64,000 bases of DNA from Sarea resinae (lineage: Eukaryota), in contig JAPEUD010000030.1 in the NCBI GenBank assembly GCA_026026165.1, forward strand, positions 124,001 to 188,000, read 5' to 3'. The notes beneath the pieces were generated by a model. It saw only the letters and a list, made by a program, of their open reading frames with translations, was not told the DNA's origin and did not search any database. The translations under genes were made by a program, and so were the position numbers. Position 1 is the first letter of the stretch. Each line of letters starts with the position of its first letter. Positions 3,341-32,929 of this stretch are shown piece after piece.

Positions 3341-6300
3341 ATGAGTAGCTTTCTTTGGAAATACTACTTTGACAATGATGTGGAAGGTTTTCGACGACTA
3401 CTGGCCCATTCCAGCTCGAATTCTCGATCGAATGCACAGAAAGGAAATACTGGCTGGACGGGAGGGGATGGAGGGGCTTCTCAAGGCAGTCCCGTGGCGG
3501 TGATATCAACTTCACCAACCTTGACCCCGAAGGCGCGCAAAACCACCGGATGGAGCCCTTCGCCCATGGCAGCGAGCGCGAAGAGCCCGAATCCACTCCC
3601 CAGTCTGACATTGACCCGTGCCGATGTCAATTCGAAAGATAGCTACGGTCGGACGCTACTCCATCATATCGCCTCGTCGACATCCGACACAGCCTTTGAA
3701 TTTGCCTCGGCTCTGTTACAGCATCCGCTGGTGGACCTATACGGTCAAGATCTGGAGAATGGCTGGACTTCCTTACATCGAGCGCTCTACTTTGGAAATA
3801 TCGCGATTGCCCGTGCGATTATGAATAAGGACACACAAGATTCATTGGGTCACGGCAACCCCAACATCGCTTATAGAGCGGGAGGACTTGTCAGGATAAA
3901 AGATAGAGAGGGAAACAGCCCCTTTGACCTGTTCGATGCGTCTATCACAAGCAGGGCCTTCAGTCGCCGCGTCATACAGCCCAATCGCTTAGACGGTGAC
4001 AACAACGATGTTCCTGATGAAGCAATATTAGACCATGGCTTCTACGAAGATGAGGGCACGCATAAGAGGGTTCTCATACCACGTGTTGACATCCACGGAG
4101 ACGACGTCTTCACTTTTGGTAGCAACAAGAATCTCACGCTTGGATTCGGGGATGAAGATGATCGGCAATACCCAGAAAGAATCACATTGAAGCGCCCTGA
4201 CCATCTTTTGCAGAGGTTCTATAGGGAACATGAAAGCAAATTTTCCGTCGAGTCACTCTCTGACTCTCTCTCAACGGAAGATTCTGTCGGCGATATCCAA
4301 TCATTGCCGAGGTTGATTCTCAGCAAGGATCTGATCATTCTGGATATAGCGATGTCAAAATTGCATACAGCAGTGTTGACCACAGATCCTGAGTCGAATC
4401 TGTATGTCTGTGGGTTCGGGCCTGGCGGCAGATTGGGTACCGGAGACGAAACTACGCGTTTTACTTTCGTGTGCATCGAAGGTGGAGCTCTGAGTGGAAG
4501 AAAGGTGATCCACGTGGGACTCGGCCAGAATCATACACTGGCAGTCACTGATGATGGATCGATATTTTCATGGGGAACGAATACATACGGTCAATTAGGC
4601 TACGCTTTACCAAAACCCAACCGGAAGGATGACGAACCGATCCAAACCTCACCGCGTCAGATTTTTGGACCCCTGAAAAGAGAGGTCATTATTGGTACTG
4701 CAGCCTCACGTATTCACTCTGTTGTTCATACGGCCTCTTCCCTCTTCACGTTTGGAAAAAACGAAGGACAACTGGGGCTTGTGGACTCGGATGCGCGCTC
4801 GTTGGAAGTGCAGATAACACCTCGTCGGGTGGCTGCATCTCTGTTCTCCTCGCCGATTCACATGGTTTCGGCTATCGACCGTGCCACAACCTGCCTGTTG
4901 GAAAGCCATGAGGTGTGGGTGTTTGCAAATTATGGCTATGCCAAAATCAACTTTCCGCTCGAGAGCTTCTCCAATTACTTCCTAAGCACAACCGCCTTTA
5001 CAACTCGCTTCGATGCACCGAACAATATCTCGAAGATCACTTCTGGCGGAGAGACCATCTGTGCGATGTCCGAAATGGGAGACGTCTTCACAATTGCTGT
5101 TAGCCAGAAAGCAGAGCCTGGGCCTACAGCAGCATCTACCACAAATCCCACGAAGATACGTAATGCCCTTTCGCAACCTGTCAGAGTATGGTCTCTGAAG
5201 AAGGGTCACATGGCTGCTCGTGATGTTGCTGTTGGCCAAGACGGGTCTATCATTCTCTGTACGGAATCTGGATCTGTGTGGAGACGAATCAAGCGCGCTA
5301 AGCTCAAGGACACGGGCTCGTCAACCCTGAGCTATCAAAAGGCCAAGGACTACAAATTTTCGAGAGCGCCTGGCTTGACGCGTGTGACTGCCGTCAGGAG
5401 CAATGTATTCGGCGCATACGCTGCCGTCCGGAAGGAATGTGACATTACGAGGACCGAGATCGTCATCAACGATCAATCACTCTGGAAGGATGTCTCACCT
5501 TTGTTGGCCTTTCGAGACCTTGCGCATAGCGATGAGTCTTCTTCTGAAGAAGAAGCAACGAAGAAAAAACGTGCTTCATTGAATATATCAGATCCATTGA
5601 AGGAACGGGTGTTGACCTCGATCGATGTTGAGGCGGACATTTCTGCCGTCCTTCCTAGATCACCTTCATCTGACTCGAGGTCTTATGATTTGGAAGTTTG
5701 CACTTCAATCTCCGACGTTCGTATACCAGCGCACCAGTTTATGTTTGCAGCGAGAAGCGTTGTCTTGAGAGATGCTTTTCGAGGAGTCCGGGCCTCTGGC
5801 ACATTGAGGATCGCTGATCTCCTAAATCTGTCCCGGGCAAAAAATGGAAAGATCGTTGCTCAGTTCTCTGGATCGGACTTCTTGACCATTCTGAACTTGG
5901 TACTGTACGTTTACGAAGATGATCTCGTCGAATTTTGGCACTTCACTCGATTCGCCCCTCAATCTGCTTTCAGATACAGGCAAATTCGTGTCGAGTTGAT
6001 GAAGATATCGTCACTACTGGAGCTTCGAAAGCTTGAATCCGCTGCAAGGTTGATGGTTGAGCCCGCCAAGGCTCTGACTCTCGACATGGAGTCCGCCGTC
6101 AACGATCCGACCTTTTTTGATGATGGAGATGTCGTCGTGGAACTTTCTGGAGCAGACGTCCGAGCTCATAGTGCTCTGCTATGCCAGCGGTGTCCTTTCT
6201 TCGAGGGGATCTTCCGGGGGCGTGCATCTGGTCTATGGCTTTCTTCTAGGCGTGAACTTAGTAGCAAGCCTACTGAGGCCGTCAAGATAGACTTGAAACA

Positions 6301-8577
6301 TGTCGCCCCTGAGATATTCGAGATTGTCCTTCGCCATATCTATGCAGACACAGGCGAAGAGCTTTTCGACGAGATTGTGACTTCCGATCTGGATGAATTT
6401 CTGGACTTGATCCTGGATGTCATGTCGGTAGCAAATGAGCTTATGATAGACCGGCTGTCCGAGATCTGCCAGAAGGTGCTGGGGAAATTTGGTATTTCCC
6501 CCTTGGCATAGTGATGAAATCAAATATACTGACGTCCGCAGTCAACGCCCGCAACATCTGTCAATTACTCAGCGCTGTTGCTCCCTGCTCTGTCACGGAA
6601 TTCAAGGACATATGCTTAGAATTCATTTGCTTGAACCTGGAGCCCATGCTCGAGTATCAGTGAGTCCAGAAAATCCTTGAGTGCCTCAAGCCTATCTAAT
6701 CACCCTCTAGTTTGCTGGACGAGCTTGATGAAGATCTGCTCTATGAGCTTGATGAAGTGGTTCGTGAAAATCAACGGCAAAGTCTACCATTCGCTAGGCG
6801 CGGTAGAGCAGAGGAGCTGTTGCACCAAAAATACCCCGACCTTGAGAAACTCATTGACGAAGAAAGGCGAACGAAAGTCGACTCCATGGTTTTTCAGGCC
6901 CGTCTCAATGAAGATGACAGTCGTCTTTCGAATTCTTTTCGATCACGGATTGGTAGCTTCGAAGCCTCGCCTGTCCCTGCCCGAAGGAAGATTCGTCAAA
7001 AGTCATTCAAGGGTACCAGGTCCGATCCCATCAGCCCAATACTCAAAGCGAGATCTTCTTTTGCAGACTTGATGTTCGACATGGACGACGAAGAGCTGAA
7101 TGCAGATGATACAAAATCCGCTCGCCGACAAACGCAGAGTCCAGCTGCACTCACAGCCAAGGCCGTCGCGAGCGGGCGTGAGAGCCCTTTGTCTAGTCTA
7201 CCAAAGGCCGAAATGTGGTACAACTCAAAGGGCAAGGCAATAGACTCCTTTACAGAGACGGCATCTTTGGGCCATTCAAATGAGCTGTCAGGTATATTTC
7301 CTGCAGCCGGATCTGCTAGTCAGATGTCACCTTCGGCACCTACAACGGATAGTATGGGAAAACCTTGGGGATCCACTCCTCTGTCATCGTCGAAGCTTGA
7401 TATGAAAGAGATCATGGAGCAAGCTTCCTCGAGCCGAAGATCGAATATCTCATTAGGGCTTCATCCTCAATCAAAGTCGGACCCAAGGCCGCCAAATTCT
7501 ACGGCTGGGAAGCTATCTCAAAAAGAGCGCAAAAAGCAGCAACAGCAGCAACAGCAGCAACTCGCATCTATGCCAGAATCTACTACAAGTGATGCCAAAT
7601 CAGCATCGCCTTGGCAAGTAGCTTCGGCGGGTCCAAAGGTTTCGCTCAAATCTGTGCTCGAGAGTAGAGAAGCAGAACGCGCTTCACCACCGACGACACT
7701 GCAAACGCCTCGGCGTAGTCCTTCAAATGCACCTCTGAACCTCCGTCAGACCATTGCAAACAACGGGCCCGCCACCCGAAAAGCATCATCGAGCGCATCG
7801 GTCCCACAAGTCCCCAAATCGCCGCCGCGTCCATCCTCAAAACCAGAACCGTCATCCCGCACGCTTCCTTCGCCCTCGCAAGCTTCACCATCCCTCAAAC
7901 CGAACCAGCTACAAGCTTCCCCCAATCCGTCCTCTTCTTTACCAATCCAATCGATCCGCCACCAACCCCGCGCCCCTGAGCCGACGCTGCAGCTCTCCAT
8001 GGCCGACATTCTCTCCCAGCAACAGGCCGAAAAAGACGTGATCCGCGACGCGGTGGCGAAACGCAGCTTGCAGGAGATCCAGCAGGAGCAGGAATTCCAA
8101 GAGTGGTGGGATCAGGAGAGTCGGCGCCTCCAAGAGGAGGAAGAGAGGAGTGCAGGAAGAAGCAAGGGCAAGAGCAAGGGGGCTGGCAAGGATGGCAAGG
8201 ATGGCAAGGATGGGAAGGATGGGAAGGATAAGAAAGACAAGAAGGATGGCAAGGACGGAAAGAAGTTGCCGTCAGGTTCTGAGACGAGAGGTGGTAGAGG
8301 TGGACGGGGTAGGGGGCGGGGCAGTGGTAGGGGTGGCAGAGGCCGTGGTGATGTGGATCGTGCCGGTGCCGGTGTCGGTAGTGGTGTTGTGAGAGGGGCG
8401 AGAGAGCAGCGAGGCGGTGGTCATAGTCAGCGGGGTGGTGGTGGTGGTCATGGTCATGGCCAAAGAGGAAGATCTGCCACTGGCGGTGCCGTTGGCGTCG
8501 GAGTCGGAGTCGGAGTCGGGCTCGGGGTCAGTGCTGCTGCTTCCAGCAGTACCGCAGCGGCCAGTGGTGCCCCATAA
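3341..8577 (+). CDS. btb1: Ankyrin + RCC1-repeat + tandem BTB/POZ protein (S. pombe Btb1 / IBTK-like Cul3 adaptor), ~1711 aa, 3 exons (3341-6491, 6542-6659, 6711-8577)
   Basis: Ankyrin motifs (DSYGRTLLH, ENGWTSLHRALYFGN), RCC1 repeats (FTFGSNKNLTLG, GFGPGGRLGTGD, SWGTNTYGQLG), BTB motifs (IPAHQFMFAARS, AHSALLCQRCPFF, LRHIYAD). Introns GTATTT..CTGAC..CAG and GTGAGT..CTAAT..TAG restore the frame. C-terminal 'SLQEIQQEQEFQEWWDQES' is followed by an RGG tail. Confidence 0.92.
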
Positions 8578-9625
8578 TCTCAGAGGCCGCGCCATGTAAG
8601 ATTTTTATATATCTATCTACGTATCTCTTCATCTATTCGTTTATCCGTCTATCCGTCTATCCATCTATCCACCGAACGACGAGAATGAATATCTAGTATC
8701 ACTATCACTATCACTATCACTATTACTACATGTATTCACTACTTTTCGCACACGCGCCACCCTTACTATTTTAATCGTACCTAAGGTACCTACCTTACCT
8801 ATCGATAGATTTTGTAAAAGGGGTGCTTGTTAGATAGAGAGATATATATATATCTCTCTCACTACTATTGTACTATTGTATCACTGTACGTAGGACCGAC
8901 ATATTAATAGCATCTCCTATCCCAGAAGAGAAGAAAGAAAAGAGTACCCGAAAGACCTGAGTGACATACCTACCCGGCCTGATTTGGTTGACCTAAGCTA
9001 ACCTAAGCTACCCTACTGTAAGCTGAGCTAATACCCTAACTTAACCCTGACCTGACCTCACCGGCCTGACTACCTACCTTCTTGACCGAGGTAGGCATCC
9101 TGGTACTTATCGGCCCCCCTTAATCCTCACGAAAAAAGAAACCCCCCCTCCCGAGACCGACCAGCCGGGTCAGAGAAAACAAAAATAAAAAGATGAGAGA
9201 TAAAAATACAGATATCACGCCCTCACCACACGCCTTGCTATGACATAGACGTGTCTCTCCACTTATCGGTCTGCACGTCTGCATGTCTGCATGTCACGTC
9301 GGTTCAGACCAACCATCCATCCATTCAGCCAGCCATGATCCCGTAGCCATAAACACAACCATAACCATGTCCATGTCCAGAGCCACAGCAATGAACATAC
9401 TCATGGCACCGTATCACATCGCATCGCATCGCATCGAAAATTCCCGTTTTCACTTTTTGGAAACCCGCCTTGACCAAAGAAACAGAAAAAACGCCCGTGG
9501 AGACTTTGCTCATGGCGTGTGCCGTTCGTAAACCAAAGATGAAAAGAAGAAAACCACGCCAGCAGAGGCAAACGTATAAGGGCTGTTGGGCCGTGAGAGA
9601 GACCAGCTGCCCAAGGCCACACAGG

Positions 9626-12351
9626 CTACCGCGCATCCTCTCCCGGTCCTCCCTGCACCAGTACAGCAAGGTAGCCATACCGCGTCAGCGCAGTAGGATC
9701 GAACGATTTTTCCTTGCTCGAGCTGCCATTTCCAGAGGCGGCGGTGGTGCTATTAGGTGGACCGGGCCCGCCCGCGGCTGACGACGACGTGTTGGTCGTT
9801 GCAGTGCCACTGGCAGACTGTCGTGGCGACGTCTGCTGCTGCTGTGTCTGAGACTGCGATTGAGAAGATGCCCCGCCGCCGCCGCCGCCACTCTCGCCGA
9901 CGGCCAGATCGGCCAGATGTTGCAAACCGCCTCGGCTAGCGCCACTGCTACTAGAATTGGACAAAGCGGCCGCCGACGAAGATGACGATGGCCCACCACC
10001 ACCCTGCTGCTGAACCTGCGTTTTCTTCCTAACGATCAAATCCCGGATAGCAGAGTCCCAGCCCCAAGCGACAAGAGCGTCCTCCGCACCTACACCGGCA
10101 GCAGAAGGAGAAGCATACCCTCTCTGCATGTCCAACGCATCCACTAGATCCTTGATCCCATTCCACGCTCCCTCCTTCGTCTCGGGGATATCCGCCAGCT
10201 CCGCGAGAGTCAACGCCGTGAGAGCTGCAAAATGATGATTGAGCGGTGTAACGGGCGTATTTGGAGAATCGAGAATGGCGGCCATGCGCAGCGCCGGTGC
10301 CAAAAGATCGTGCGGTTCCGAGGTGAGGGTATGCCGTACTGTGAGGAGGCGCACGTGCCAGTAGGAGAGATGGACGAGCGGGAGCGAAGGCAGAAGAGCG
10401 TCGACGGATTCGCGGAAGCGTTCGATTTCGCCGTGCAGGAGCTTGCCGATTAGCGGAGCCGAGGGTGAGGAAGGAGACATGATGTCGTCCGCTGCAACGA
10501 AGATCGAGGCGAGGTGGCCCACTATGCATGAGAGGCCTGAAGGACAGCATGAGCAAGCTGCTAGACCACAGAAGGACTATCGGTTCATGATGGACTCACG
10601 AGCAAGGTGGAAGGTAGAGTCGCCCAACAATACTTGGTCTACTGGGAGTAACTCTACGCTGGAATCGGGGATGAGCAGCGGGCTTGATGTGCTTGAAGCG
10701 TGCCATCTGTCGAGAATAACCAACACCAACCAATCCCGTCGTGCCAGCTTCTCGTCCGAGTCTGGATCGCCATCTGAAAATCTCTCGCGGTAACGGACCG
10801 CGTGCAGTTTGAGAGCATACGCCAGCCCCACGGCCGCACCGAGCCACACAGCCCGTGGCGGACCAAGTTGGCCCTTCATCGTCGCAGGTCCATGATTGTC
10901 CGCTTCGAGGGCCATGAGGATCATGGTTTGGAGGAAGATGAGGTTTGTAGACATGGTTCGGGTGGCAGCGCTCTCAAATTGGGATGCCGCAATGAGATCG
11001 GAAGCTTTCCGTGTATTCTGAAAGTCCCGAGCGGGAGGCAGATTCGATGAGGGGAATGATCGTACAGCGGAGTAGAGAGCTTCAAGGAACGCTTCTCGCA
11101 AGGTGACAGGGCAATTTGCAAGACGCGAACGTAGTCGAGCTTTTGAATTGGCCAGTAGAGGAAATGTTGGGTGTATTATGCGATAATATCTAGACACGTT
11201 AGCTTGAGTCAGGTCTTCCCAGCCAGTGCGATCATACTCTTCCACCGTTTTATCGTCCCACTCGAGAAGAGCATCACTTCCATCCTGTTCATTCGGTCGT
11301 AGATCGCTCGACTCGTACGGCAGGCTGAGACTTTCACGTCTCCCCGGATCGGAGGCCCCATGTCTCCAGAAAGACTGGGCACTATTCGGTGAGAGCTGAG
11401 GCCGATAGCCAGACGAGATGTGGTTGATGTCAGGTACGGCCGATGTAGACTGCGGCGTTTGCGGATGGACGCCGGAAGCCGGCGGAGGAAGCTGTCTGGC
11501 CGGGTCTTGCGCCGGCCAACCCGGACCCCCAATGGAGGGTAGTTTCTCACTCGGCCGTTGAGGGAGCGTTTGTGCGTATGCTGGAGGGTGCAATGCATCA
11601 GAATCTGAATGTGTTCTCTTTCTGGGATGTCTTGCCCAGCCACCGGTTGAGAGGGGAGGAGAATATCCATCTGAGACTCTAGAAGACGTGCCTTCATCGT
11701 TCACCATCCCGTATTGCATGTCCGGATGTTGGCTTGGCTGGATGGAATTTTCGAGCGTGTTGAGACGGTCGGCCAGCTCTTTGATGTACCTGCCAGATTG
11801 TTACCATTTGAAATCACGATGATTCGCCATTGCGCCTACCCTTTGCTCGGCCCTCTTTTCATAGGCACTCGGCTGAACTGGCAGCGGGTGCCTACTCTCT
11901 TGCAGCTTGAGCATTGTTCCAGCCCAGACTCCGACGTCGCGTCGCAACGGATCTTCGCATGATTAGCACGTCCGTCTACTCACGCCCACGGTCTATGACA
12001 AACCTTCTTCCTTCTGCATTCGTCGCATGCTCTGGACACTTTGGATCTCTTCCTCGGTGCGGTCGGGTCGCCAAAATTGGGGTCTTGGTTCGCATCCATT
12101 CCACCTTGAGCGGCCAATTGCGCAGGCGACGGAGAATGCACCGAGCCATTGCCTTGTTGGGTTGGAGACATCATCTCCTGCCCTTCATTCGTCGATCCCG
12201 TCATCGTTGGGGCGGCATTGCGAGAGATTTGCGCCGAAAGCTGCAGATTGTCCGGCGACGGCAGCCTCTGTTGATTTGAGAAGAATGGAGGAACGCCTTC
12301 GCCGATCTGGCCGGTGCTGGGAGAAGGGTAGGTTTGGGGTGGTGCTTGCAT
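9626..12351 (-). CDS. Zn(II)2Cys6 fungal transcription factor, Rgt1-like ('glucose-responsive TF' type), ~837 aa, 5 exons (12351-12004, 11952-11840, 11789-11238, 11189-10600, 10536-9626)
   Basis: Spliced binuclear cluster RKRSKVSRACDECRRKK|IRCDATSESGLEQCSSCKRVGTRCQFSRVPMKRGPSKG|YIKELADRL; fungal-specific TF domain (YYRIIHPTFPLL, LVILDRWHASS); four canonical introns. Confidence 0.9.
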
Positions 12352-20385: not shown

Positions 20386-21224
20386 TGTCGCCGTTACGTG
20401 TGTCAAAAGCGGATGGCTAGGAAAGGCAGATTGGCAGGATGGCAGAATGGATGGGATAGGATGGGCCAGAAGAGAACAGCGGACGATATGATAAGACGTG
20501 ATGGGTTTCGACAGAGGGGAGTTATGATACGGAAGAATGGAAAACTTAGCCAGATCGACGCGACAGACGACAAGTAGGAGATTAACGGGCGGGGCAGGCA
20601 GGCAGGCGTGCGGTCAGGACGGAAAATAAGACGATCCCTCATCCCATATACCATCTACCCTCTCCCCTCTATTCTCCGGCCTGTTTTTCGTGTCTTGCCA
20701 TGTTTCTAGCCAGCTCTCCTTCCTCCTTTCGTCTTTCCTTCTTTCCCTTACCACCCTGTCTGTCCCTCTTAATCACAATGCGCTCTGTCCCCTTGATCGC
20801 CGTATCTCTATTTCCCCTGATCGCTCTCCTTTCCTCTACTAGCAATGGCTAAAAGAACCCTGAAGTAGGTAGGCTGCAATAGCATACCAGTCAATAAACA
20901 TCCACTCTAAATTACAGTCTTCCTAGTAAACAGGCAAAGCTGGTCTTATATGCGCTATAAAAGAATACTGTAACCTACCTAGCTTATCTAGGTGATTATA
21001 CCTTATTTGGCTACTGTATAGTAGTGCTTCTTATTATAATACCAGTTCTCTATGCTAATATAAGATATCTGAAAAAAGTGCCTATTTCAAAATCATCCGT
21101 CGACGGGATATTTTGATATAGACTAGATTTGAGACGAGATAGGCAGGTCCGCGCAGATGATCCTCCCGGCTGTAACACCAATTCTAACCACCTGCAGGTT
21201 CCTGCGGCACATTTTGGCCTCGGC

Positions 21225-21971
21225 ATGCGGCCACTGCTGTCCCTGAAGTCACAGTGCGAGTTCCTCTTGCTCCAACTGCGTCTCAGTGTCGGACGCCGCA
21301 TTCTCGGTCCCGTGGGCAGACTAGGCGTCCAAGTCAGCCGGAGCAGAATCATCAAAGGCCCCTGCGGCGACGCCGAGCTCATAGCTCTAGAATACGTCCA
21401 AGAACACACCACCGTCCCCGTGCCAAGGCTCTATCAAGTCTTCCGCGTCCCAGACGACTTGTACATCGAGCTCGAATCCGTCGCGGGGGCCGACCTTTCC
21501 AGCCTCTGGGGAAGCGGCCAGCTGTCTCGCGACCAGAAACGTGGCAAGGCATCGTGGAAGAAATCGCCGGATAATTTCCGCGTGTCGTCGATCCCCTTCG
21601 ACGCCCTTCCCCACCATCGCCGCCTTCCACTCGTTCCTCCGCGGACACATCCCGGCCGCCTCCTGCGCCGCGGTGTTCGGACCCGACGTAGCTCGCTGTC
21701 ACGACCCCGCGCGCGCATGCGCCAGCGTCTTCACGCACGTTCCGATATCTGTCCGCGCAATATCATCATCACGCCTACCGGGACGCCCGTCTTGATCGAT
21801 TGGGAGCTCGCGGGCTGGCGGCCCGAGTATTGGGAGTACACCAAGGCGTTTTATCCCTTGATCAGCGCCGAGGATTGGTACGAGTTGTTTGACCTGTGCT
21901 GCTCGAGGCGGTACGGGGAAGAGTTGGTGGCGGAGCGGAAGCTCTGGAGGGTGCTGGATCAGCCGTGGTAG
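21225..21971 (+). pseudogene. Aminoglycoside-phosphotransferase/choline-kinase-like (APH family) gene, frameshifted relic
   Basis: APH-like motifs ELIALEYVQEHTTVPVPRLY, PFPTIAAFHSFL, VFTH/SDICPRNII and LIDWELAGWRPEYWEY are spread over three frames, with shifts near 21545, 21573 and 21739. Confidence 0.75.
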
Positions 21972-22706
21972 TGAGCGGTGGGGTGGGGTAGTCGTGGGCG
22001 CTGTTGGGTGACGGGACAGGCGTTTTAGGATGGGTGGGAGAGAAGAGGCTGATTGATAGGTTGACTACTTACTAAATAGAGGACTACTGATATGAATGCA
22101 GGACCTGGAGCAGACAGCTAGTAGAGAGCTTTCTAGTAGGCTGCCCTTGTATACAGTAGGTAGGTAGGGAAGGATCACCGGCCCGGCTTATTTTGATAAA
22201 GGTCTACTTACTATCAATCGGGATTTTAAGGACAGTGTGTTGTTAACACCAAAGCGTATAATCTGTAGTTCCTCTTTCTCGCTGAAAGAAGGAATTCAAC
22301 CTGATATCTTTAAGAAAGGGTTTGTGGCCTACATACCTGCCTAGCCTCTCTCTCTCTCTCTCTCTCTCTTATTATGTCTTCTGTTTACCGGGATCTTGTT
22401 AGAAATAGGAGAGATGCTAGGGTAAAGAGTGATAGAGACAGATAGATATAGAGTGTAGATATAATGTGATATAATTTAGAGAGATAGAGAGAGATAGAGA
22501 GAGATACTAATGTGCCAGCTTAAAAGAGTGTGTAAATGTAGCAGAGTAATATAAGGATAGTATTTAGTGTTATATAGCAGATCCTAGTTATATAGTCTAC
22601 ACTACTACCTATCTACCCTATCTACCCTATTTATACATCTACACTATCTACTCTATCTACACTATTTATACATCTACAATCTACACAAACAAGACCTATC
22701 CTCTAA

Positions 22707-22760
22707 CTAACCTCCTAACCTCCTAACCTCCTAACCTCCTAGCCTTCCTAACCCTCCTAA
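22707..22760. repeat. (CTAACCTC)4+ degenerate tandem repeat within a TA-rich low-complexity tract
   Basis: Four perfect octamers at 22707-22738, then degenerate copies. Confidence 0.8.
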
Positions 22761-23604
22761 TCTCCTACTCTATCCTACCTTGCTATACCCCTCTCTACCC
22801 TACCCTATCCTAACCTAACCTATCCTACCCTGCCCTCTCTATCTACAACACTCTTATCCACCTATCTACACTTCCTCCTCACACACCCTTCACCTTCCTC
22901 TTCCTCTTCCTCTTCCTCTTCCCCTTCCTTTTCCCCTTCCCGATCTTTTTTTCTTGTTCTTGTTCTTTTTCTTTTCCTTTTCGATTCCTTCTAGCCTTTG
23001 CATGTCTCGTTGATCTGATATCATCCATTCGTTCATGGTTTTTTTATTTACATGACATGTCTTGTCTTGTCTTGTCTTGTTTTGTCCATGTGGATGAAGA
23101 ATTTATTTCTTTTATCTATCTATTTGGTTTTATCGATTTGCTCAGTTTGCTTGCTTGCTGAATCTTTTGTTTGCTCGTTTGTCTCGGATCGGAGAGATTG
23201 GAGAAAAAAGGATCAAGAGATCAGAGATCAGAGATCAGAGATCAGTCCTAGAAGGAAACAAGCAAGTAAGCAAATGAGTGCCAAGCTTGCAAGATCTGTG
23301 ATTTCAAGTAGCTACTTTGTGGAGACGAATGCATGGACGAACGGGTGGATAGATAGACGGATGGCTAGATGGACAGACGGCATAAATGAGAAGCACGAAA
23401 GATGATGAAACAAAACCCATTACCATCGTCAGCATCATCATCATCGTCGTCGTCGTCAATTGTCGTCACAATCACCATCGTCGCTATCTCAGAAGCCTCT
23501 CTTCAAGCAAGCCGTCTCGAGCCTCCCAATTGAAAAGACAAGGAAAAACGCCCGGACCCAAAGCCACACCTTGACTACCACAACCCATACCACAATGGAA
23601 ACCC

Positions 23605-26600
23605 TCAATGCCCCGAACTCCCAAACGCAAATCGTCGGTTCCGCTTCAGTAGCCCATTCAATCGCTTCTCCAGCGCCTCCGTCTCCTTTCGAGCGGCCAA
23701 CATCGCCTTCTCTGCCTCTTCGACACCGAGGAGCGGTACCGTTGGTAGGCTGTGCGCATGCGATGACGTGTTGCTTGCTGATGTCGTCGTCGTTGCTGCT
23801 GTGCTGGAGTGGTTGTGTCGTGAGGAGAGGGACGTGGCTGCATGATGTGGGGGAGGAGGCGCGAAACTGTTTGGTAGGAGAATGTCAGCTGATAGTTCTG
23901 TCATCATATGACGTGTGCGATGACTGCGGTTCATAAGGGAGAAAATAAGGGGCGAAAGGCGGAGAGTAGAGGCAAATGCAAAGATTCGACTTACCATCCC
24001 AAAGGATCTGGCCCCTGTCCCCCCCTGGCAATGTCCTCCGCAACCCGCAATCCAAAATCAGCAACCCCTTGCACAGAAGGCGAGTTCTCCAATCTGCCAC
24101 ACGCAGGCAAAGCAGGAAGAACAAACTGATTGATGTAATCTAGCGCCTCGTCCACACGCATCTTGCTTGCTGGATCGGGCAGAGGTCGGTGCTGAGAGGA
24201 TAGGCCACTATGATGAGCAATCAACGAGACATCGGTAGGTGTCTGCACAACGCGACCGCCAATCAGAGTAAACTCGCTGCCTGCCTTTTTGGGAGTGTAT
24301 TTTGTCGGTCCTCGGGCCGAGGTGGTGCGTTTCTCCAGAGTGAGAAAGTGCGCTTCTTGCTCTGGGGTGAGGCCGCGAAGGATGGCTCCCGAAGGAGAGA
24401 TGAGGACGCGGGACGATGGCTTGGAGGGGGAGCCAAGGCGACGGATGGGATGGCCTGCCGAGAGAGCGGTACGCTCGTCGTCCGTGAGGTTGAGCTTGCG
24501 CTCTAATTCTTGAAAGTCGGCAGCAGAGATGTCGTGGCGGTGGTTTAGACCCAGGATGGATTTGAAGATTTCTAGACTGGACGGATCAAGCTCCCCAGCA
24601 GACTGCAGATCTGAGATGATCGACGCTGGTGTGATTGCTTTGGTAGATACTTCCGGTGTAATGGACGCCTGATTTGACTCTGCTTTGTCGCTGTCCCGCG
24701 ACTTTGATCTCTCCTTTGCAGTCTTGTCAGAACTCTTGTCTACTTTCTCCTTTTCCTTAGGCGTGGGCGATACAGGTCTGCTGACGGCAGGAGTAGATCC
24801 ACCAGTAGCACTGCCACCTTGTTTCTTCGTTTTCTTTTTACGACTGATGATTGGAGCCTGCACAGTCTCTTCCGCACGAGCCAGTTGCAAAGCTTCCTCC
24901 ACCTTCACGCTCTGCTCTGCTAATTTCGCCCTCTCCTGCCTCTGTTTCTTCTGCTGACTCTTTGTCTTGACCCGTACGGGCGCAGAGCCTACTTTGCTGG
25001 GCGGCGGAGAATTGGCGCGTGATAGAGACGTAGAGGTAAAAGAGGCGGTCTCGGATATCAGCTCACTGGCGGGAGTACCTGGCCGATTCATCGATGGCGT
25101 TCCCGGCCGATTCATAGACGCAATGCTCGATTGTCGAGACGGTTGCTTCGCAAGTGCAGCCTGAACCGACGAAGCCACCGCCGAGAATGTAGCTGAAGGT
25201 GGCGGAGTCTCGGTTTTTGGTGTTGGCAATACTCGTAAAGTCCTGGCTTGCGTTTGGCGGACGGCAGGAGACTCTGCTCCACGAGTTGTAGTACTACCCG
25301 GTGTGCTAGGACGAGAGGTTGGAACATTTGCTGCTTTTGTTCCCTTGGTCGGTGTCTCGACCTTTGCAGAGGCAGAGGACGCAGCAGCGGTAGCAGCTTG
25401 CAATTCTTTGGATGCTGCCTGGGTTGCTGCAGATATATCTAGCTTTCCGGGAGCTTGGCGTTTGCTAGCTTCTTCAGTGGCTCTGCCATTTTTGCCCACC
25501 TTATGTTCGCTAGTACTGGGCTTAGGAGCATCTGAAGCATCCTTTGTGCTAGCTGGCTGTTTTTCGGACTTGAGCATACCTCCTACAGCTTTCTCTCCCG
25601 TCAACTTAGCTGGAGCATCGAGAAATGGATCCGACTCGGCAGGTTTTGAGACATGCGCTTTCGCCTCTAGCTTTGACTCTTTCTCTTCACCATGATTTGG
25701 AGGAGTTGAAACTGGCTCGTGAATATCCACATCCTTGACCTCTCGTTTAAGTGGAGTCGATATTCGACCGGGCGTGATCGGAATGATCGGGATGGCAGGC
25801 GTAATGACAGAAGAAGTTGTCGACTTTGCTGGGCTGTGTTTCCGAGGGGATTCCTCTGACAGTATGGATAGCGGCGGGTGCTGTCCCTGAGGAAAAGGCA
25901 AACCTGGTGGAGCGTAGAGCGGAGTCGAACGGCCAGATCCACTAAAGAAGCCTGAAGCACTGAATGGCCGATAGTCGGATGGAGCCTCATTCACGAGAGC
26001 GTCAATCGAAGCCTCGTCCAGAGCAGGGGATGTTTCTTCTTCTGTACGATCGAGCCGTTAGCAATGCTGCTTGATTGTGTAGTTGATGAGACGGAGGCAC
26101 AGCAGAACGCAAAACATCGAAGAGAGACACTAGATACATGAGGGCGCTAAATCATAAATGCCGACGTGGAAAAGCCTGCGGAGGTCGAAATCCGAATTCG
26201 CAGAAGCGAACAAGACTACACTAACGCCAAACATCATCGTCTTCGTCACAGGCCAATGGTAGTCGCTATGGAGGCAATTATATGTAAGAACATGTCTTCT
26301 AATCCGCCGGAGAAGGCGAGTAAGTATGGGGCGGGGCCTTAACGTACATAATGGCCATGACGAAGACGATGGTGAAGTATTGGTGGAAGATCTACCCCAC
26401 AGCATTGTGCAATACCGGTAAGTAGAGCAACCCCCCCATGGCAGAAAACAAACATGATATGACGCTGGAAATGCACCGGATATCCTAACCGCTGGATATA
26501 AGAAAGAAAAGCTTGGCCCAAAGGCAACTCCGTAGGCAACCCAAAGCCCGTGTTTTTGGTGTTTTGCCGATGCTTCGCTGATGATAAAGAATATGTGTGT

Positions 26601-29600
26601 ATGTCCGTCATAGCCCAGAAGATTGAAGAGTGATAAGACAGAATAAGGGAAAGTAAATGAAGAGGGTTCAACCCACAAGGAGATACAAAAAATGAAAGCC
26701 CTCGCAATGGATCCTCAATCACCATCTTCCAAAGCCACCGCCGTGCATCATGTTGGGATTGTACCCACCTTGACCTTGGCCACCGAAAAGTCCCTGCCCG
26801 GCGCCAGAAGCGCCACCTTGATGCATCCGAGCCTGCAAAATACTCGGGTCCGCAAGATCGACTATCCCACCTCCCCCAGAAGAGGAAGTGTTAGCATGTC
26901 TGTGCTTCTTCCCCTTCTTCTTCTGCTTCTGTGGACCGGAATCTTGGTAGGCTCCTAGCTGAGGTCCATAGAGCGAACTCAGTGGACCCTGGGCAGAGAC
27001 TGGGGTGGAGGAGGTCGAAGGGTATTGATGAAGAAAAGTAGGAAACATGTACTCACGCTTTCCAGCGTCAGATAACTGACCGTTGACCGCACCACTTGCT
27101 CCGCCACGACCCCGAAGTAGTTCGCGCATAAGCTCAGCGTTATTGTCTTTCTGGTTCAGATTGTTCGCTCCGAACATACCACCCATCGCGCCGGTAAAGC
27201 CATGCCCTTGACCGAACATGCCGCCTCCGCTCACCGGAGGTGTACCGGCTGACTTCAGCCCGGGAGGTGGGCCTTGCACCCCACTACCGAAGAACTGACT
27301 ACTTAGTTGTTGGTGCCCAAGACCCTGCGTGTTCAGGTTGTGGGAGTTTCCGGAAGGCATCATCGCAGATTGCTGCGCCATGAGCTTGGCGTTGGCTGCA
27401 GGCTTCACGGCCGCAGATGCCGAGGCGCTGTCATTGGCAAACGTATAACGAGATGACTGCCTGGCATGCCCTGGAGCCCCAGCAAGTTGCTGATTCTGAT
27501 TCTGAAAGAGACCAGACTGGAGATGATTCGCTTGATTAAGATTCATGCCGTTTTGCATCCCGGGAGGGAATTGGTCTAGGAAATTGCTTGGCTGTCCATT
27601 ACCGGATTTGAGAAGTAGCAGTTGTTGCTGCTGCAATGGCGTCAGGCCACGGCCGTTGATGGTAAGGTTCGAAAGGTTATTAGAGAGGTTGTATGATTGA
27701 TTGAATCTGGGAGCAGGACTATGTCTCATTTGCTGAGAAGGTGGCCGAATCGCCTGGCGGGGTTGTTCCTGAAGAACTTGGGTAGACTGATCACCCGAAT
27801 CCGATCTGGCTTCTGGTTCACCTCCAAGCTGTAAGCTTCCGCTTGACGCATTCTCCTCGGGATCTGCAGCTGAGATCGCCTGCAACGCAATCTGGGTTTC
27901 TTCTTCCAACTTCCGACGTTCTTCTTCCTCGCGTTCACGCATGGCACGTCTCTTAGCTCCTCCATTGTCCGCGAATAAGGGTGGGTAGCTGTTGATCATT
28001 TCAAGCTCCTCGGGACTGAACATGGAGTAATTAAATGAAAATATGAATGCCGGCGAATTCACAGATTTGATAAGATTGTCTAGCAAGGGAATTGAATTCT
28101 GCTTCGCTGTCGTAGATTTGCCTTTCGTCGCCGTGCTGTGGGGGTCTGGAGAGGCAGGTTCTTCGCTAGACGGCCGCGTTGGCTCCGAGTCAGAAGCCGC
28201 TTTCTCATGGTCGGTCTTTTGGTCCTCGACGGCATTCGATGCCGTCGTCGCATTGGTTGTCTTTGGACTTGGTGTTGCTCCGCTTGCGGCCCGACTCGTT
28301 CTCCTGCTCTGCTGATGTAGACCTTTGCTTGCCCAGCTCGCCGTCGATGGTAGTGCCGAACCGTCTCCGCTATCAGCTGGACTAGCCGCACCGTCCCGGC
28401 TGGCTTGCCGGCCCATAGCTGGTGCGGCAGCTGCGACCGTTTGCGGTGCTTGCTGTGGCGGCGGTTGCGGCTGAGGAGTTGGCTGCGATGGCGCTTGACG
28501 GTGCCCCGCAGCAGCGGCAGAGGATGCGGCATTCTGGGCAGGTCGCTGGGTGGAAACCACGTTCATGGATGAAAGATCCTGTCTTGTAAAGCTGTCGTTT
28601 TCCTCCCCAGGTTCGTGTAGGAACATGCAGTTGCGATTATTACATGGCTCATTGCGAAGGTAAGCGGAGCAGTATTTTGTCGTACCGTACTGTGCCCTAA
28701 AGGAAAAGTGTCAGCAAAGCTCCGTCTAGTGTACCCACATCAAAATACCTGAGCACACGATCGCCATTTTGGGAGCCGTCGACCGCAGCGATGCAGCTGG
28801 CTGCGTCTTCCTTTCTGGCGAACGTGACATAGACGCCCATGGACTGATTAGGGTGGGAGCCATCCTTGGCCTTGCTAACAACAATCTTGACGATTTTGCC
28901 GTATTGACCGAAATACTGCTCCCCTCGCAAAGTCTGCAACAGGTCCTCCTCTCGTATTCGGGGATTGAGTCCGACGACATAGACGAGGTTCTTCTGAACA
29001 ACCCGAAGGCCGGCAAGATGTTTTCGGTTTTGAGACTCGACCTCCCGCTTCTGAGCTTCCTTTTGTCGTGCAGCCGCCTTTTTGCGGGCCTGCTGTTGAA
29101 GGTCTGCCTTGAATCTGAGACAGAGTGTCAGCCAACGCAACCTGAATCTCGCCTCACACCGCCAAGAGAACTTCGGAAGTGGCCGACTCACTCTTCTGGA
29201 CTGACGACCTTCCATTCGATTGTCTTTTCATCGTAAGGCCGTCTGCATGCTGGACAAAGACCGTTCATGTTATTCTTGATGTTGTTGAAGCAGAACTGGC
29301 AGACCTAAGTGGTGGGGCAAAGTTAGCAACGACGTCGGAAGACCTGATCTACGGGGTTGATCTTGTGGCATAGGAGAATATTCCATCGATCAAAGATCGT
29401 TGCCGACGTTTTCACCGTGAACACGAAGGGAAGTGACATACTTGGTAGCCGCAAGGACATGGTCTGAAGTTCCTGTCCGAGAGATCGAACTCCTCGACGC
29501 AGAGAGGACTGATTTGCAAAAGTCAGCGACGTAACGAACGAACAGGTCGAAGGCTAGATCGGCATACCATGCATCGTCGGAGTCGTCAATGAAGCTATCT

Positions 29601-29620: not shown

Positions 29621-30569
29621 CTTGGGGTGGGTAGACGCGAGCTCACGACGCGCGAGCGGCGGCGGATGAAGTGGGATGGAAAAGGGAGGATGACGGTGGA
29701 AGAGAAAAAGACGATCAAAGATCAGAGAGAAATCCAACGCCAAGATCGCAGGGGCAAGAGAGGGGAGAGGATCTGAGGTCGGCGGAGGAACAGGTGAAAG
29801 GAAGGTGATTGAATCCGGGGTCAGGTGAAGTGAGGAAGGGAAGTAGAGCAGGTAAGTAGGTAAGTAGTGAAAGGAAGCAAGTGAAGGTTGTTAGATGAGG
29901 CGTCAGTGGTCAGTGGTCCGTGGTGGTCAGAAGCAAAAGTACGTTGAAGTCTCGAAGTCGTGTCGGTACTCGGCTCGCGCGCCGTCCGGCGGTCTGGTTT
30001 GGCCCTGGACCGAAGTGGAAGTACTTGGCTCTACTTGGCTCGCCTGACGACTACGGATCATGTAGGAACGAGAACTCGAATAGGAAGGAGATGCATATGG
30101 CTGGCTGACGAGTACTCCGTACAATTTCTCCAACCTGACCGTCCCGAGGTAATCGAATCTACTATCTAATGCGGCCCTCGTAGAAGACGGGGAGATGACT
30201 CGAAACAGAGACTTGACGATGTTGTTGGACTGCGTACGCAGTTGGAGCATTGGATCCTGCAAGTATCAGTAGCTGGAGCCCAGTGTTTTCATCCAGTAGT
30301 AGAACGGTACCGCAATACGGAGAGCGAAGGCCCGGACTTGGCAGGCTCGTGACCTCGCTAGATTTGCCCCAAGTCGAGAGCCTCATCATACTCCGTATTC
30401 CAGCGGTGATACTTCGTACTCCATACGGTCGGTACCTGCATCGCCGTACCTCCACCACCTCCAGACTTCAGGGCATCATCACCATTCCAATTGCCCCCAA
30501 GTCCCTCCCCGCCGTCGGAACCAGCAATTGGAAGCCAATTGAGCCCACCGGCTGCCATCTCCACTCATC

Positions 30570-31565
30570 ATGGCCTTACGATTGCAGACCAGCCGTTCTC
30601 TGGCCGCCGCTCTCCGAGCCGGGAGCTCCTCATCCTCTGCTCTCCGGGCCAACGCGCTCCGAACTTTCACATCGTCATGTCTGCGGCAGAAGGATGTGGT
30701 CGCGCAGCAGGACAAGCCGAACCTACGACATGCTCATCGGACTCGTATGTCTCCTCCAAAGCCCCCTACAAGCACCTTTTCAAAAAAAAGTCTAACATCG
30801 AGGTACTCCTCAGCAACGGGCGTGCTCAACCGCCCCGTCGAAAACCCCGCCGACAAGTACGCCGAACAATCCAGCGCCCTCCACACCTACGGCCAATATC
30901 TCCTCTCCTGCCTACCGAAATATATCCAGCAATTCTCCATCTGGAAGGACGAACTGACCATCTATATCCCGCCCTCGGGCGTCATCCCCGTGATCACTTT
31001 TCTGAAATACCACACCGCGGCCGAATACACCCAAGTCAGCGACATCACCGCCGTCGACTACCCGACCAAAAGCCAGCGCTTTGAGGTCGTGTACAACCTC
31101 CTCAGCGTCCGCCACAACTCCCGGATCCGCGTCAAGACGTATGCCGATGAGGCGACACCGGTACCGAGCATCACGAGTCTGTACGATGGTGCTCTGTGGT
31201 ACGAGCGCGAGGTGTACGATTTGTTTGGCGTCTACTTCTCGGGTCACCCGGATCTTCGACGTATCATGACGGACTACGGCTTCGACGGCCACCCGCTGCG
31301 CAAGGATTTCCCTCTGACCGGCTACACGGAGCTGCGCTACGACGAGGAGAAGAAGAGAATCGTCATCGAGCCGCTGGAATTGACCCAAGCCTTCCGCAAC
31401 TTTGAGGGCGGAACCGCGGCCTGGGAGCAAGTTGGACCGGGCCAGGACCGAACGCCGGATTCAGTAAGCATTGAAGCTTTACCTCAACCAAGACGTGACT
31501 AATATTCCTGATAGTTCAAACTCCCCACTCCCAAGCCCGAAGAGAAGAAGGAAGAGAAGAAATAA
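30570..31565 (+). CDS. NDUFS3: NADH:ubiquinone oxidoreductase 30-kDa subunit (NDUFS3/NuoC/NUGM), mitochondrial; introns 30745-30813 and 31464-31514
   Basis: Presequence, then RFEVVYNLLSVRHNSRIRVKTY, WYEREVYDLFG and HPDLRRIMTDYGFDGHPLRKDFPLTG; last exon FKLPTPKPEEKKEEKK*. Confidence 0.97.
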
Positions 31566-32160
31566 GCGCTCTTACGAGAGGGGGGGGGAAACAATCTTTT
31601 CTTTTTGAATCCAATCTCTCCGCTGCATATTCCACCGAACAGATAAAGCTCTTGTACATTTTATATAAAGCAGCATCCCCAAGTGTTTGACCCATGAAAG
31701 ACCCTCAGTCCTTTATCTCAACGTGCTTGACCCGGATCTCATTGAGTCCAAAACGGGTGAACCCAAGAGCGGGGCCATATACCAGCAAGACACCCAACTC
31801 CCCAACAGCCATCGAATTTCATCTGTAGGAAGAGAAGCACCAGACCTTTGCATTGCACCAGACGAGAAGACCCTGCTCCCCACTGACCTCCTCCCCGCGA
31901 AAAAAACCGAAGTAGTAAGTAAGCAGTAAGAAGCCTCCGAGAAGCCATACAGATCCCCGCACCCCACGCCAACCCTCCCCAACCCAACTCATTCCAGGAA
32001 AATGAATTCTCTTCTCTTCTCTTCTCTTCTCAATACAGTCCGTCCCCCGTCCCCCCCACAGAAACGCAGAAATATTCCATTCCGGCTCTTCGCCCGGCCC
32101 GGCCTCCACGAGCTGCTGCCGCCATGCTCTCCCTGCGACTATACTCTGTACTCTACTCCC

Positions 32161-32280
32161 TACCTACCTACCTACCTACCTACCTACCTGCCCACCTTTT
32201 TTCATACCCTTCCTTCCTTCCTTCCTTCCTTCCTTCCTTCCTTCCTTCCTTCCTTCCTTCCTTCCTTCCTTCCTTCCTTC
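32161..32280. repeat. (TACC)7 and (CTTC)18 tetranucleotide microsatellites
   Basis: Directly visible at 32161-32188 and 32209-32280. Confidence 0.95.
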
Positions 32281-32929
32281 CTACACAAGCCTCTCTCATC
32301 AAACAACCCCCCCTCTCCCCCTCCTGATACACAACATCAACATCCCCCCTGTCTGTCTACGTATTTTCCACTCGGGACTCGGGCGAAGAAGGAGTAGGGG
32401 TAGAGGGGAGACGGAAACAGATGATCTGCCCCCGAGAATAGCAAAACGCCCTCCTCCTCCTGCCTTGTCGGGAAAGGCCGAGGTTTTGTTTAGGCTCTAC
32501 TTTACTTTTTGTTTGTTTTGGAGTAGGGGAGGTGAGGGGGGAAATAAGGGCACGGTAAGGTGATTAGTGGGATAGGAGTGGGATAGGAGTGGGAAGGGAG
32601 AATGGAGAAGGGGGATATGAGAAGGATGTGAGAAGGATGTGAGAAGGGAGAAGGGGAAAGGGATTGAGAAGGGAGGAGGGGAAGTGAACACTAGCTTGAG
32701 TAGGATAGCAAGATTTGGCATGACTAGGCGTTGTGGGGGAGAGAGAGTAAGGTACGGTGAGGAACGTGAGACACGTTGGGTTCTTGTGCACGACGTCAAA
32801 GACGATCGATTGTAAAAGACGACTTTTTGTTCTATAAGTCTGAACACCGTAGATACACTATACGCCGCGCCCGCTCCTTAGCGTCGCTAATGATTGACCG
32901 ACAACTCTATCTCGCGGGTGATATTCTTC

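Follow-up and report, generated by a model that had tools for sequence, protein, structure and literature searches.

We analysed a 64,000-nucleotide stretch of the Sarea resinae genome (assembly GCA_026026165.1, contig JAPEUD010000030.1, positions 124,001 to 188,000; hereafter the window, with positions counted from its first letter), whose minus strand carries the gene NOT4. The 3' part of this gene holds, in transcript order, a donor (D1), a hidden acceptor (A0), a second donor (D2), a stop codon, a third donor (D3) and an acceptor-like site (A1) enclosed by the arms of an RNA stem, and a distal acceptor (A2) opening the last two exons. These splice signals and their phases are conserved, and we consider it probable that filamentous ascomycetes share, in the 3' part of NOT4, a conserved splicing module with several states.

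Exons 1-4 (29620-29568, 29508-29442, 29304-29192 and 29114-28749) encode the RING and RRM domains common to all forms. Exon 5 starts at 28696 and stays open until a TGA at 26721-26719 (..GGGFGRW*), which gives a product of 858 amino acids (form S), and its first part, exon 5a (27057..28696), is also common to all forms and codes for a CCCH-like finger, a YPPLF segment, GSLQLGGEPE, a PPPGL motif and ELMRELLRGR. Joining D1 or D2 to position 26041 removes an intron of 1015 or 727 nt, stays in frame with one stop and yields 1515 (L1) or 1611 (L2) amino acids, the latter identical to NCBI model P0001; the remaining introns measure 59, 137, 77, 52 and 128 nt. The protein has the domain order of Not4/CNOT4, a C4C4 RING, then an RRM, then a CCCH finger. 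Pfam assigns the Not4 RING (PF14570) and RRM (PF00076), the RING/RRM region matches solved structures of Not4 domains from yeast and human at E values of 1e-19 to 3e-16, and the finger matches weakly (E 0.067). The locus is single-copy in the genome, and exon 6 has no paralogue.

Both donors of exon 5 are in phase 1. D1 (C|GTGAGT, 27051..27056) codes for K-R-E-(F/Y/S/L) when read through and D2 (G|GTGGGT, 26763..26768) for G-G-(Y/F), leading into the short-form tail GGYNPNMMHGGGFGRW and its stop (26719..26768). The distal site combines a GCTAAC branch (26062-26057) with acceptor A2, TACAG (AG 26043-26042; together 26042..26062). At the DNA level we compared seven loci, the window and six fetched metagenome loci. 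The donor contexts AAGC|GTGAGT (D1) and CAAG|GTGGGT (D2) are letter-identical in 6/6 fetched loci, the donors themselves are identical in all seven, and a branch, acceptor and long phase-1 exon follow 544-614 nt past the stop in 5/5 loci that reach it, with the L005 sequence stopping just past a GCTAAC. Among 120 short-type protein tails, all carry KRE followed by F, Y, S or L at D1, as retention of GTGAGT predicts (a codon family starting with T), 115 carry QGGY or QGGF at D2, and 97 end in RW. A rough regular-expression census of 154 annotated long proteins placed 79 junctions as D2-like (at least 7 visibly mis-binned), 29 as D1-like (4 inexact), 19 beyond D2, 24 as other and 3 as unanchored; in these rough bins of annotations, both D1 and D2 junction types occur in several classes. 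A phase-1 consensus donor, GTG|GTATGT at 27179, lies 123 nt upstream of D1 and takes the top score in our ad hoc donor-scoring matrix.

A preliminary description of the window had read NOT4 as one gene with short and long products. Its coordinates, phases, intron sizes and three products all hold on recomputation, S and the D1 long form are now backed by spliced proteins, and the alignment across loci bears out both the two phase-1 donors joining exon 6 in frame and the GGY..RW* tail. The downstream exon is, as claimed, an extension without its own start, with no Met before residue 155 and no common N-terminus. The interval from stop to A2, described as ~680 nt and U-rich, has the expected length (677 nt) but is only mildly U-rich (33% U); it contains no canonical AATAAA, and the sequence thus gives no sign of intronic polyadenylation. 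The two in-phase donors are real, but that picture was incomplete, A0, D3 and the stem having been missed. Splicing from D1 would skip the KQKKKGKKHRH segment, which resembles a nuclear localisation signal, but would still leave the long form with such a segment, because the extension brings the conserved GRKKKTKK.

Because the conserved acceptor A0 sits between the two donors, an exitron plus a cassette, with the donors at their ends, is the better reading. The exitron D1-A0 (26862..27056) is in frame, 195 nt or 65 codons long, and if retained codes for KQKKKGKKHRH (26928-26896); its 3' end (26862..26895) comprises a hidden GCTAAC branch (26895-26890, read as Ala-Asn codons), a pyrimidine run and the A0 TAG (26864-26862), after which the 93-nt cassette A0-D2 (26769..26861) codes for DLADPSILQARM..GQGQ. 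In 7/7 loci the interval is a stop-free GT-AG intron within a coding exon, 189-195 nt long and a multiple of three, the cassette is 90-99 nt and also a multiple of three, and the residues H-A-N-T-S are written CAY GCT AAC ACT TCC. The in-phase TAG of A0 keeps an identical position in 6/7 loci and is shifted by 3 nt in L006, and the residue preceding V-D is I, L, V or T in 120/120 tails, every one compatible with YAG. A single codon is used across all seven loci for 1/82 invariant residues upstream of D1 versus 20/44 from D1 to D2 (3/3 at D1, 6/17 in the exitron body, 5/10 from branch to A0, 3/11 in the cassette and 3/3 at D2), a synonymous identity that confirms constraint on the RNA. Beside these signals, the Lys run at 26928-26904 is purine-rich and uses AAG at 5/6 positions in all seven loci, which may reflect a splicing enhancer or codon bias.

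With the exitron, five coding forms are possible (858, 793, 1611, 1546 and 1515 amino acids). The D1-A0 junction occurs in 11 annotated proteins and one further, in forms 61-62 residues shorter in which D1 is joined to DLADPSIL. In Coccidioides immitis RS these measure 771 versus 833 and 1494 versus 1556 residues, and NCBI holds three variants, of 833 (S), 771 (S minus exitron) and 1494 (L2 minus exitron). Cluster look-ups gave further such forms in Blastomyces (1517), Aspergillus flavus (1497) and Colletotrichum (1507). The exitron is seen retained in S proteins and in a contig (26287-26863, reaching A0) of RNA run X1; its spliced state comes from annotation.

Intron-less proteins in public assemblies support two of the forms most directly. 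P0022 (JGI, 1477 amino acids) carries the D1-A2 junction and spans four introns of L002, and it must derive from spliced RNA because the genomic span (4218-9728) exceeds the 5163 nt of its longest contig. P0293 (805 amino acids, form S) matches the same locus across three introns, P0200 is likewise a spliced S form there, and four more spliced S forms (P0126, P0362, P0363 and P0372) map to L003. In Aspergillus fumigatus, Logan is listed as a source of both S (P0317) and L1 (P0326), which would be RNA-derived if the gene caller does not splice. We infer from these proteins that S and L1 are both made in one species group. The phosphopeptide containing S919 (PMC7773993 Table 2) corresponds to position 929 in P0316, beyond the junction at 801, which shows that the extension is translated in A. 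fumigatus. For D2-A2 and D1-A0, conservation and annotation suggest use. Run X1, from this organism or a very near one and available as contigs of depth 3-5, has contigs solely at 26064-26231, 26287-26863 and 27137-27299, with A0, D2 and D3 all left unspliced; two apparent joints (57 and 403 nt) were rejected as splice junctions, as they have no GT-AG ends. A spliced JGI protein, P0299, follows NOT4 to D1 (L002 4218-6467) and continues into a 28-residue tail absent from L002, so that either D1 is joined to another acceptor or the contig is chimeric.

The long intron holds a second, non-coding set of conserved signals. D3 (AT|GTACGT at 26347), a branch-like CTTAC (26288-26284) and the acceptor-like A1 (CATAG, ending at 26266) outline a probable nested, or 3' untranslated region (3'UTR), intron of 82 nt (26266..26347). 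The D3 motif AT|GTAYGT lies 296-651 nt past the stop in 7/7 loci, and in 6/7 it is followed by CTYAC and YAG, outlining an intron of 61-84 nt; of the splice signals more than 50 nt past the stop that mark a 3'UTR-intron switch for nonsense-mediated decay, the donor is present in all seven loci and the branch-like site with YAG in six. Shuffle values for ATGTAYGTWA, a motif derived from the same loci, are 0.002-0.0075, and the D3 region gives a blastn E of 4e-7 versus no match below E 0.2 for the other NOT4 introns and UTRs.

The D3-A1 interval is flanked by two arms that can pair (left, 26351..26375, core CATCGTCTTC; right, 26231..26256, core GAAGACGATG; stability z = -4.18 in the window). Stem stability lies above that of shuffled sequences in 6/7 loci, with the arm duplex better than all 300 shuffles in five and matched by 1/300 in L004. 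A covariance model trained on four loci recovers the region in the three held-out loci (rough E 5e-7 and 1.4e-6; in L005 in part only, at 3.9e-6). The genome has a single occurrence of the stem pattern, and Rfam 15 gave no match to the region below E 1. L005, a Sordariomycete-like locus, has a longer interval (>1100 nt) with a second left-arm copy (TTCATCATCTTCTTC; L005 4148-4235) directly ahead of the right arm, which makes an alternative local hairpin possible, and ATGTA at D3 (26351-26343) has its complement in the TACAT of the branch-like site (26288-26280), similarly in L002, L004 and L007, a complementarity that could sequester both sites. Splicing of D1 or D2 to A1 was rejected as the source of a conserved product, as it adds 0-34 unconserved residues and then a stop. 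A stwintron, in which an inner intron breaks a splice element of the outer intron, was likewise rejected, D3-A1 lying mid-intron with joined flanks that make no common splice signal.

In the model that we favour, intron a (the D1-A0 exitron, supplying the basic segment if retained) would be followed by the 93-nt cassette, intron b (D2-A2) and exons 6-7, and intron b, if retained, would code for a 16-residue tail and a stop. The unspliced state would give S, D1-A2 splicing would skip the cassette to give L1, and D2-A2 splicing would give L2, with exitron removal adding the variants of 793 and 1546 amino acids. From one pre-mRNA, weak D1 and D2, a hidden A0 and a stop inside intron b could yield tails that differ in whether they carry the basic segment, the DPSIL cassette and the extension. 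D3-A1 splicing would set the fate of the S message, its most likely role, by analogy with known 3'UTR introns, being that a junction ~370 nt past the stop marks it for decay, and the stem would stop A1 and D3 from being spliced to D1, D2 or A2.

Several points weigh against this model or parts of it. The DNA comparison covers only seven loci, of which three are Leotiomycete-like. Of the cluster members listed, no assembly-derived protein has a D2-A2 or D1-A0 junction, and annotated junctions are not independent evidence because gene predictors pick them from the same signals. X1 yields no junction from this organism; it has no contig on exon 6, where absence proves nothing. The branch of the nested intron is non-consensus, and none was found in L005. 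The stem is weak in L006 (8/14 pairs; 55/300 shuffles reach it), and a different upstream 45-mer outpaired the arm both there and in L007. Covariation is thin: the only clear change on both sides of the stem, from AU to GC, is in L003, beside G-U changes. The arms are otherwise mostly identical in sequence, and we regard pairing as likely. In the published text of PMC7773993, an A. fumigatus strain truncated to residues 1-693 of Not4 grew almost normally, and in Fusarium graminearum, isoforms with features of nonsense-mediated decay (NMD) were not stabilised in a upf1 mutant according to the text of bioRxiv 2021.11.08.467853, data which argue that NMD coupling is not general.

A simpler account, possible in our view though on balance improbable, is that S ends by cleavage and polyadenylation within intron b while two donors compete for exon 6, with A0, D3 and the stem as by-products. 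S and L1 are indeed the only assembly-supported forms. S-encoding contigs come in two sizes: those of 2.7-3.1 kb (P0293, P0372, P0440 and P0660) are compatible with an end in the intron, but the Logan contigs of 5.5-5.8 kb (P0126, P0362, P0363 and P0451) are compatible with read-through to the distal end. The X1 contigs reach down to 26064 with nothing beyond, a weak hint, as contigs cannot show ends. Contigs also break at splice bubbles, an intronic poly(A) site would be compatible with the favoured module too, and A0 and D3 are no less conserved than D1 and D2.

D3 could also splice to A2 as a third donor, or serve as a U1 decoy, such that the stop is kept and S protein is made from an mRNA carrying exons 6-7 as a 3-kb 3'UTR, with the stem gating D3. 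We think this unlikely, although D3 is the sole GTRHGT donor between stop and A2 in 6/7 loci, the CTRAC of A2 is the only one in the interval in 5/7, D3 outscores D1 and D2 in the ad hoc matrix, and the longer S contigs would fit. CTYAC and YAG stand at intron-typical spacing after D3 in all but one locus, and the X1 contigs pass D3 without a splice and include 26231-26064. It is very improbable that the conserved codons merely combine protein constraint with codon bias, with one form that matters and the rest splicing noise: the protein sequence of the basic and DPSIL segments is highly conserved, Lys AAG is favoured anyway and intron retention is described as common in fungi in the text of PMC12861292, but the equally conserved upstream GSLQLGGEPE and GPPPGLK have free third positions (within the 1/82 above), and D3 and the stem are non-coding. 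We give almost no credence to two genes, a short NOT4 and a separate downstream gene with the long forms as annotation fusions, since many genomes annotate an adjacent pair (P0288/P0289, P0302/P0305, P0373/P0374) but the N-termini of the downstream proteins listed share no start and are unrelated between species, the first Met of exon 6 is its residue 155 with conservation running from the acceptor onward, and P0022 is a spliced fusion. An additional internal promoter for the downstream part is possible.

As a more ambitious extension of the favoured model, the module could be a feedback switch, with a nested intron gated by the stem and two weak donors allowing the cell to choose between a decay-prone message and any of five Not4 proteins. 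The stem region would then be read by Not4 itself, through its RRM, or by the activity of CCR4-NOT, and the state of mRNA decay or translation stress would set nuclear or cytoplasmic, stable or unstable E3 forms. We regard this as doubtful; the sole pointer to autoregulation is that Not4 has an RRM.

The extension of 768 amino acids encoded by exons 6 and 7 is itself conserved. Exon 6 (23995..26041) contains TPxxPPGL, KRxxPGKLDI, PRTLRVVxTPKTE, the Ser/Thr-rich SRANSPPPSKVGSAPVR, GRKKKTKK and a small folded domain, predicted as alpha/beta (24300..24520; predicted local distance difference test 83-96 over model residues 51-110); DEAxxYINQFVLP is a further conserved block, and exon 7 (23605..23866), after a 128-nt intron (23994-23867), codes for a conserved terminal helix and the stop. 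Pfam found no family in exons 6 and 7, and a Foldseek search with the domain returned nothing at E <= 0.001. The best VIA Z of 4.4 indicates neither a known nor a new fold, and three Atlas matches at 0.81-0.82, in ascomycete clusters, are leads only. The second half of the extension is matched by 342 cluster representatives (E <= 0.001), and Not4 proteins with the module are named from Eurotio-, Dothideo-, Leotio-, Sordario-, Lecanoro- and Geoglossomycetes.

As to partner binding, the YPPLF segment (residue 437) is present in all forms and may resemble the yeast Not1-binding site; PDB searches with the profile and with the segment gave no match to a site of that type. This Not4 has the typical PPPG-phi motif, and the long forms carry one more than the short. 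According to the text of PMC6362812, the motif is found in all Not4s, such motifs are ligands of GYF domains, and the metazoan CAF40-binding motif is absent from fungi. The CAF40 gene of this genome is interrupted by introns.

Elsewhere in the window, a divergent neighbour (30543-31502, plus strand, ~900 nt from the NOT4 start) resembles the complex I 30-kDa subunit by eye. Open-reading-frame pieces at 21117-21971 on the plus strand, split by an intron or frameshift, are judged by eye to belong to a putative APH/choline-kinase-type phosphotransferase. Dense short tandem repeats lie between genes at 22500-23420 and 31930-32560.

Conserved splicing that diversifies the proteome is considered rare in fungi. 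Compared with Not4/Mot2/CNOT4 proteins, the RING/RRM core is alike and the differences are the alternative tails and an extension without a Pfam or clear fold match. The same extension is the long C-terminus of A. fumigatus Not4, published as part of one protein and unique to filamentous fungi (Shwab et al. 2020, PMC7773993), in a main text without any word starting 'splic'. The C. immitis RS variants of NCBI/Broad use D1-A0, D2-A2 and the stop in the same way, as database models without analysis and without D3 or the stem. In Neurospora, 3'UTR introns trigger NMD that depends on the exon junction complex (Zhang and Sachs 2015, as cited in the text of PMC7746235); they too lie far past the stop in an RNA-metabolism gene, whereas here the probable intron sits inside another that is itself an alternative coding intron, and a stem closes it off. 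SKI7/HBS1, in the account given in PMC7491326, is likewise one gene making two conserved mRNA-surveillance proteins through fungal alternative splicing. Unlike SKI7/HBS1 and known exitrons, NOT4 stacks exitron, cassette, retained stop intron and nested intron within ~1 kb. Structured fungal non-coding RNA motifs (Li and Breaker 2017, PMC5640933) similarly place conserved stems in introns or UTRs, and NOT4 and CCR4 are absent from the text. The isoform passages of a 2025 CCR4-NOT review do not include Not4, and the literature searched, which lacked most subscription papers, contained no report of a fungal Not4 splicing switch.

The observation is real and richer than first noted. Such splicing accounts for databases giving Not4 as ~800, 1460 or 1560 amino acids, or as two genes, and a C-terminal tag at the annotated stop reports the long forms only. 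Truncation of A. fumigatus Not4 at residue 693, 14 to 24 residues before D1, raised its abundance and altered its localisation in the results given in PMC7773993; the rise in abundance has a second reading, because a tag on a protein cut short before D1 reports every transcript, and the module is lost entirely. The analysis pinpoints where mutations could lock single isoforms and provides a non-coding element outside Rfam. The module sits in the E3 ligase of CCR4-NOT, a core decay factor, and would make it possible to tune the ratio between Not4 forms that share one RING/RRM core but differ in their tails, which may change the abundance and localisation of the protein.

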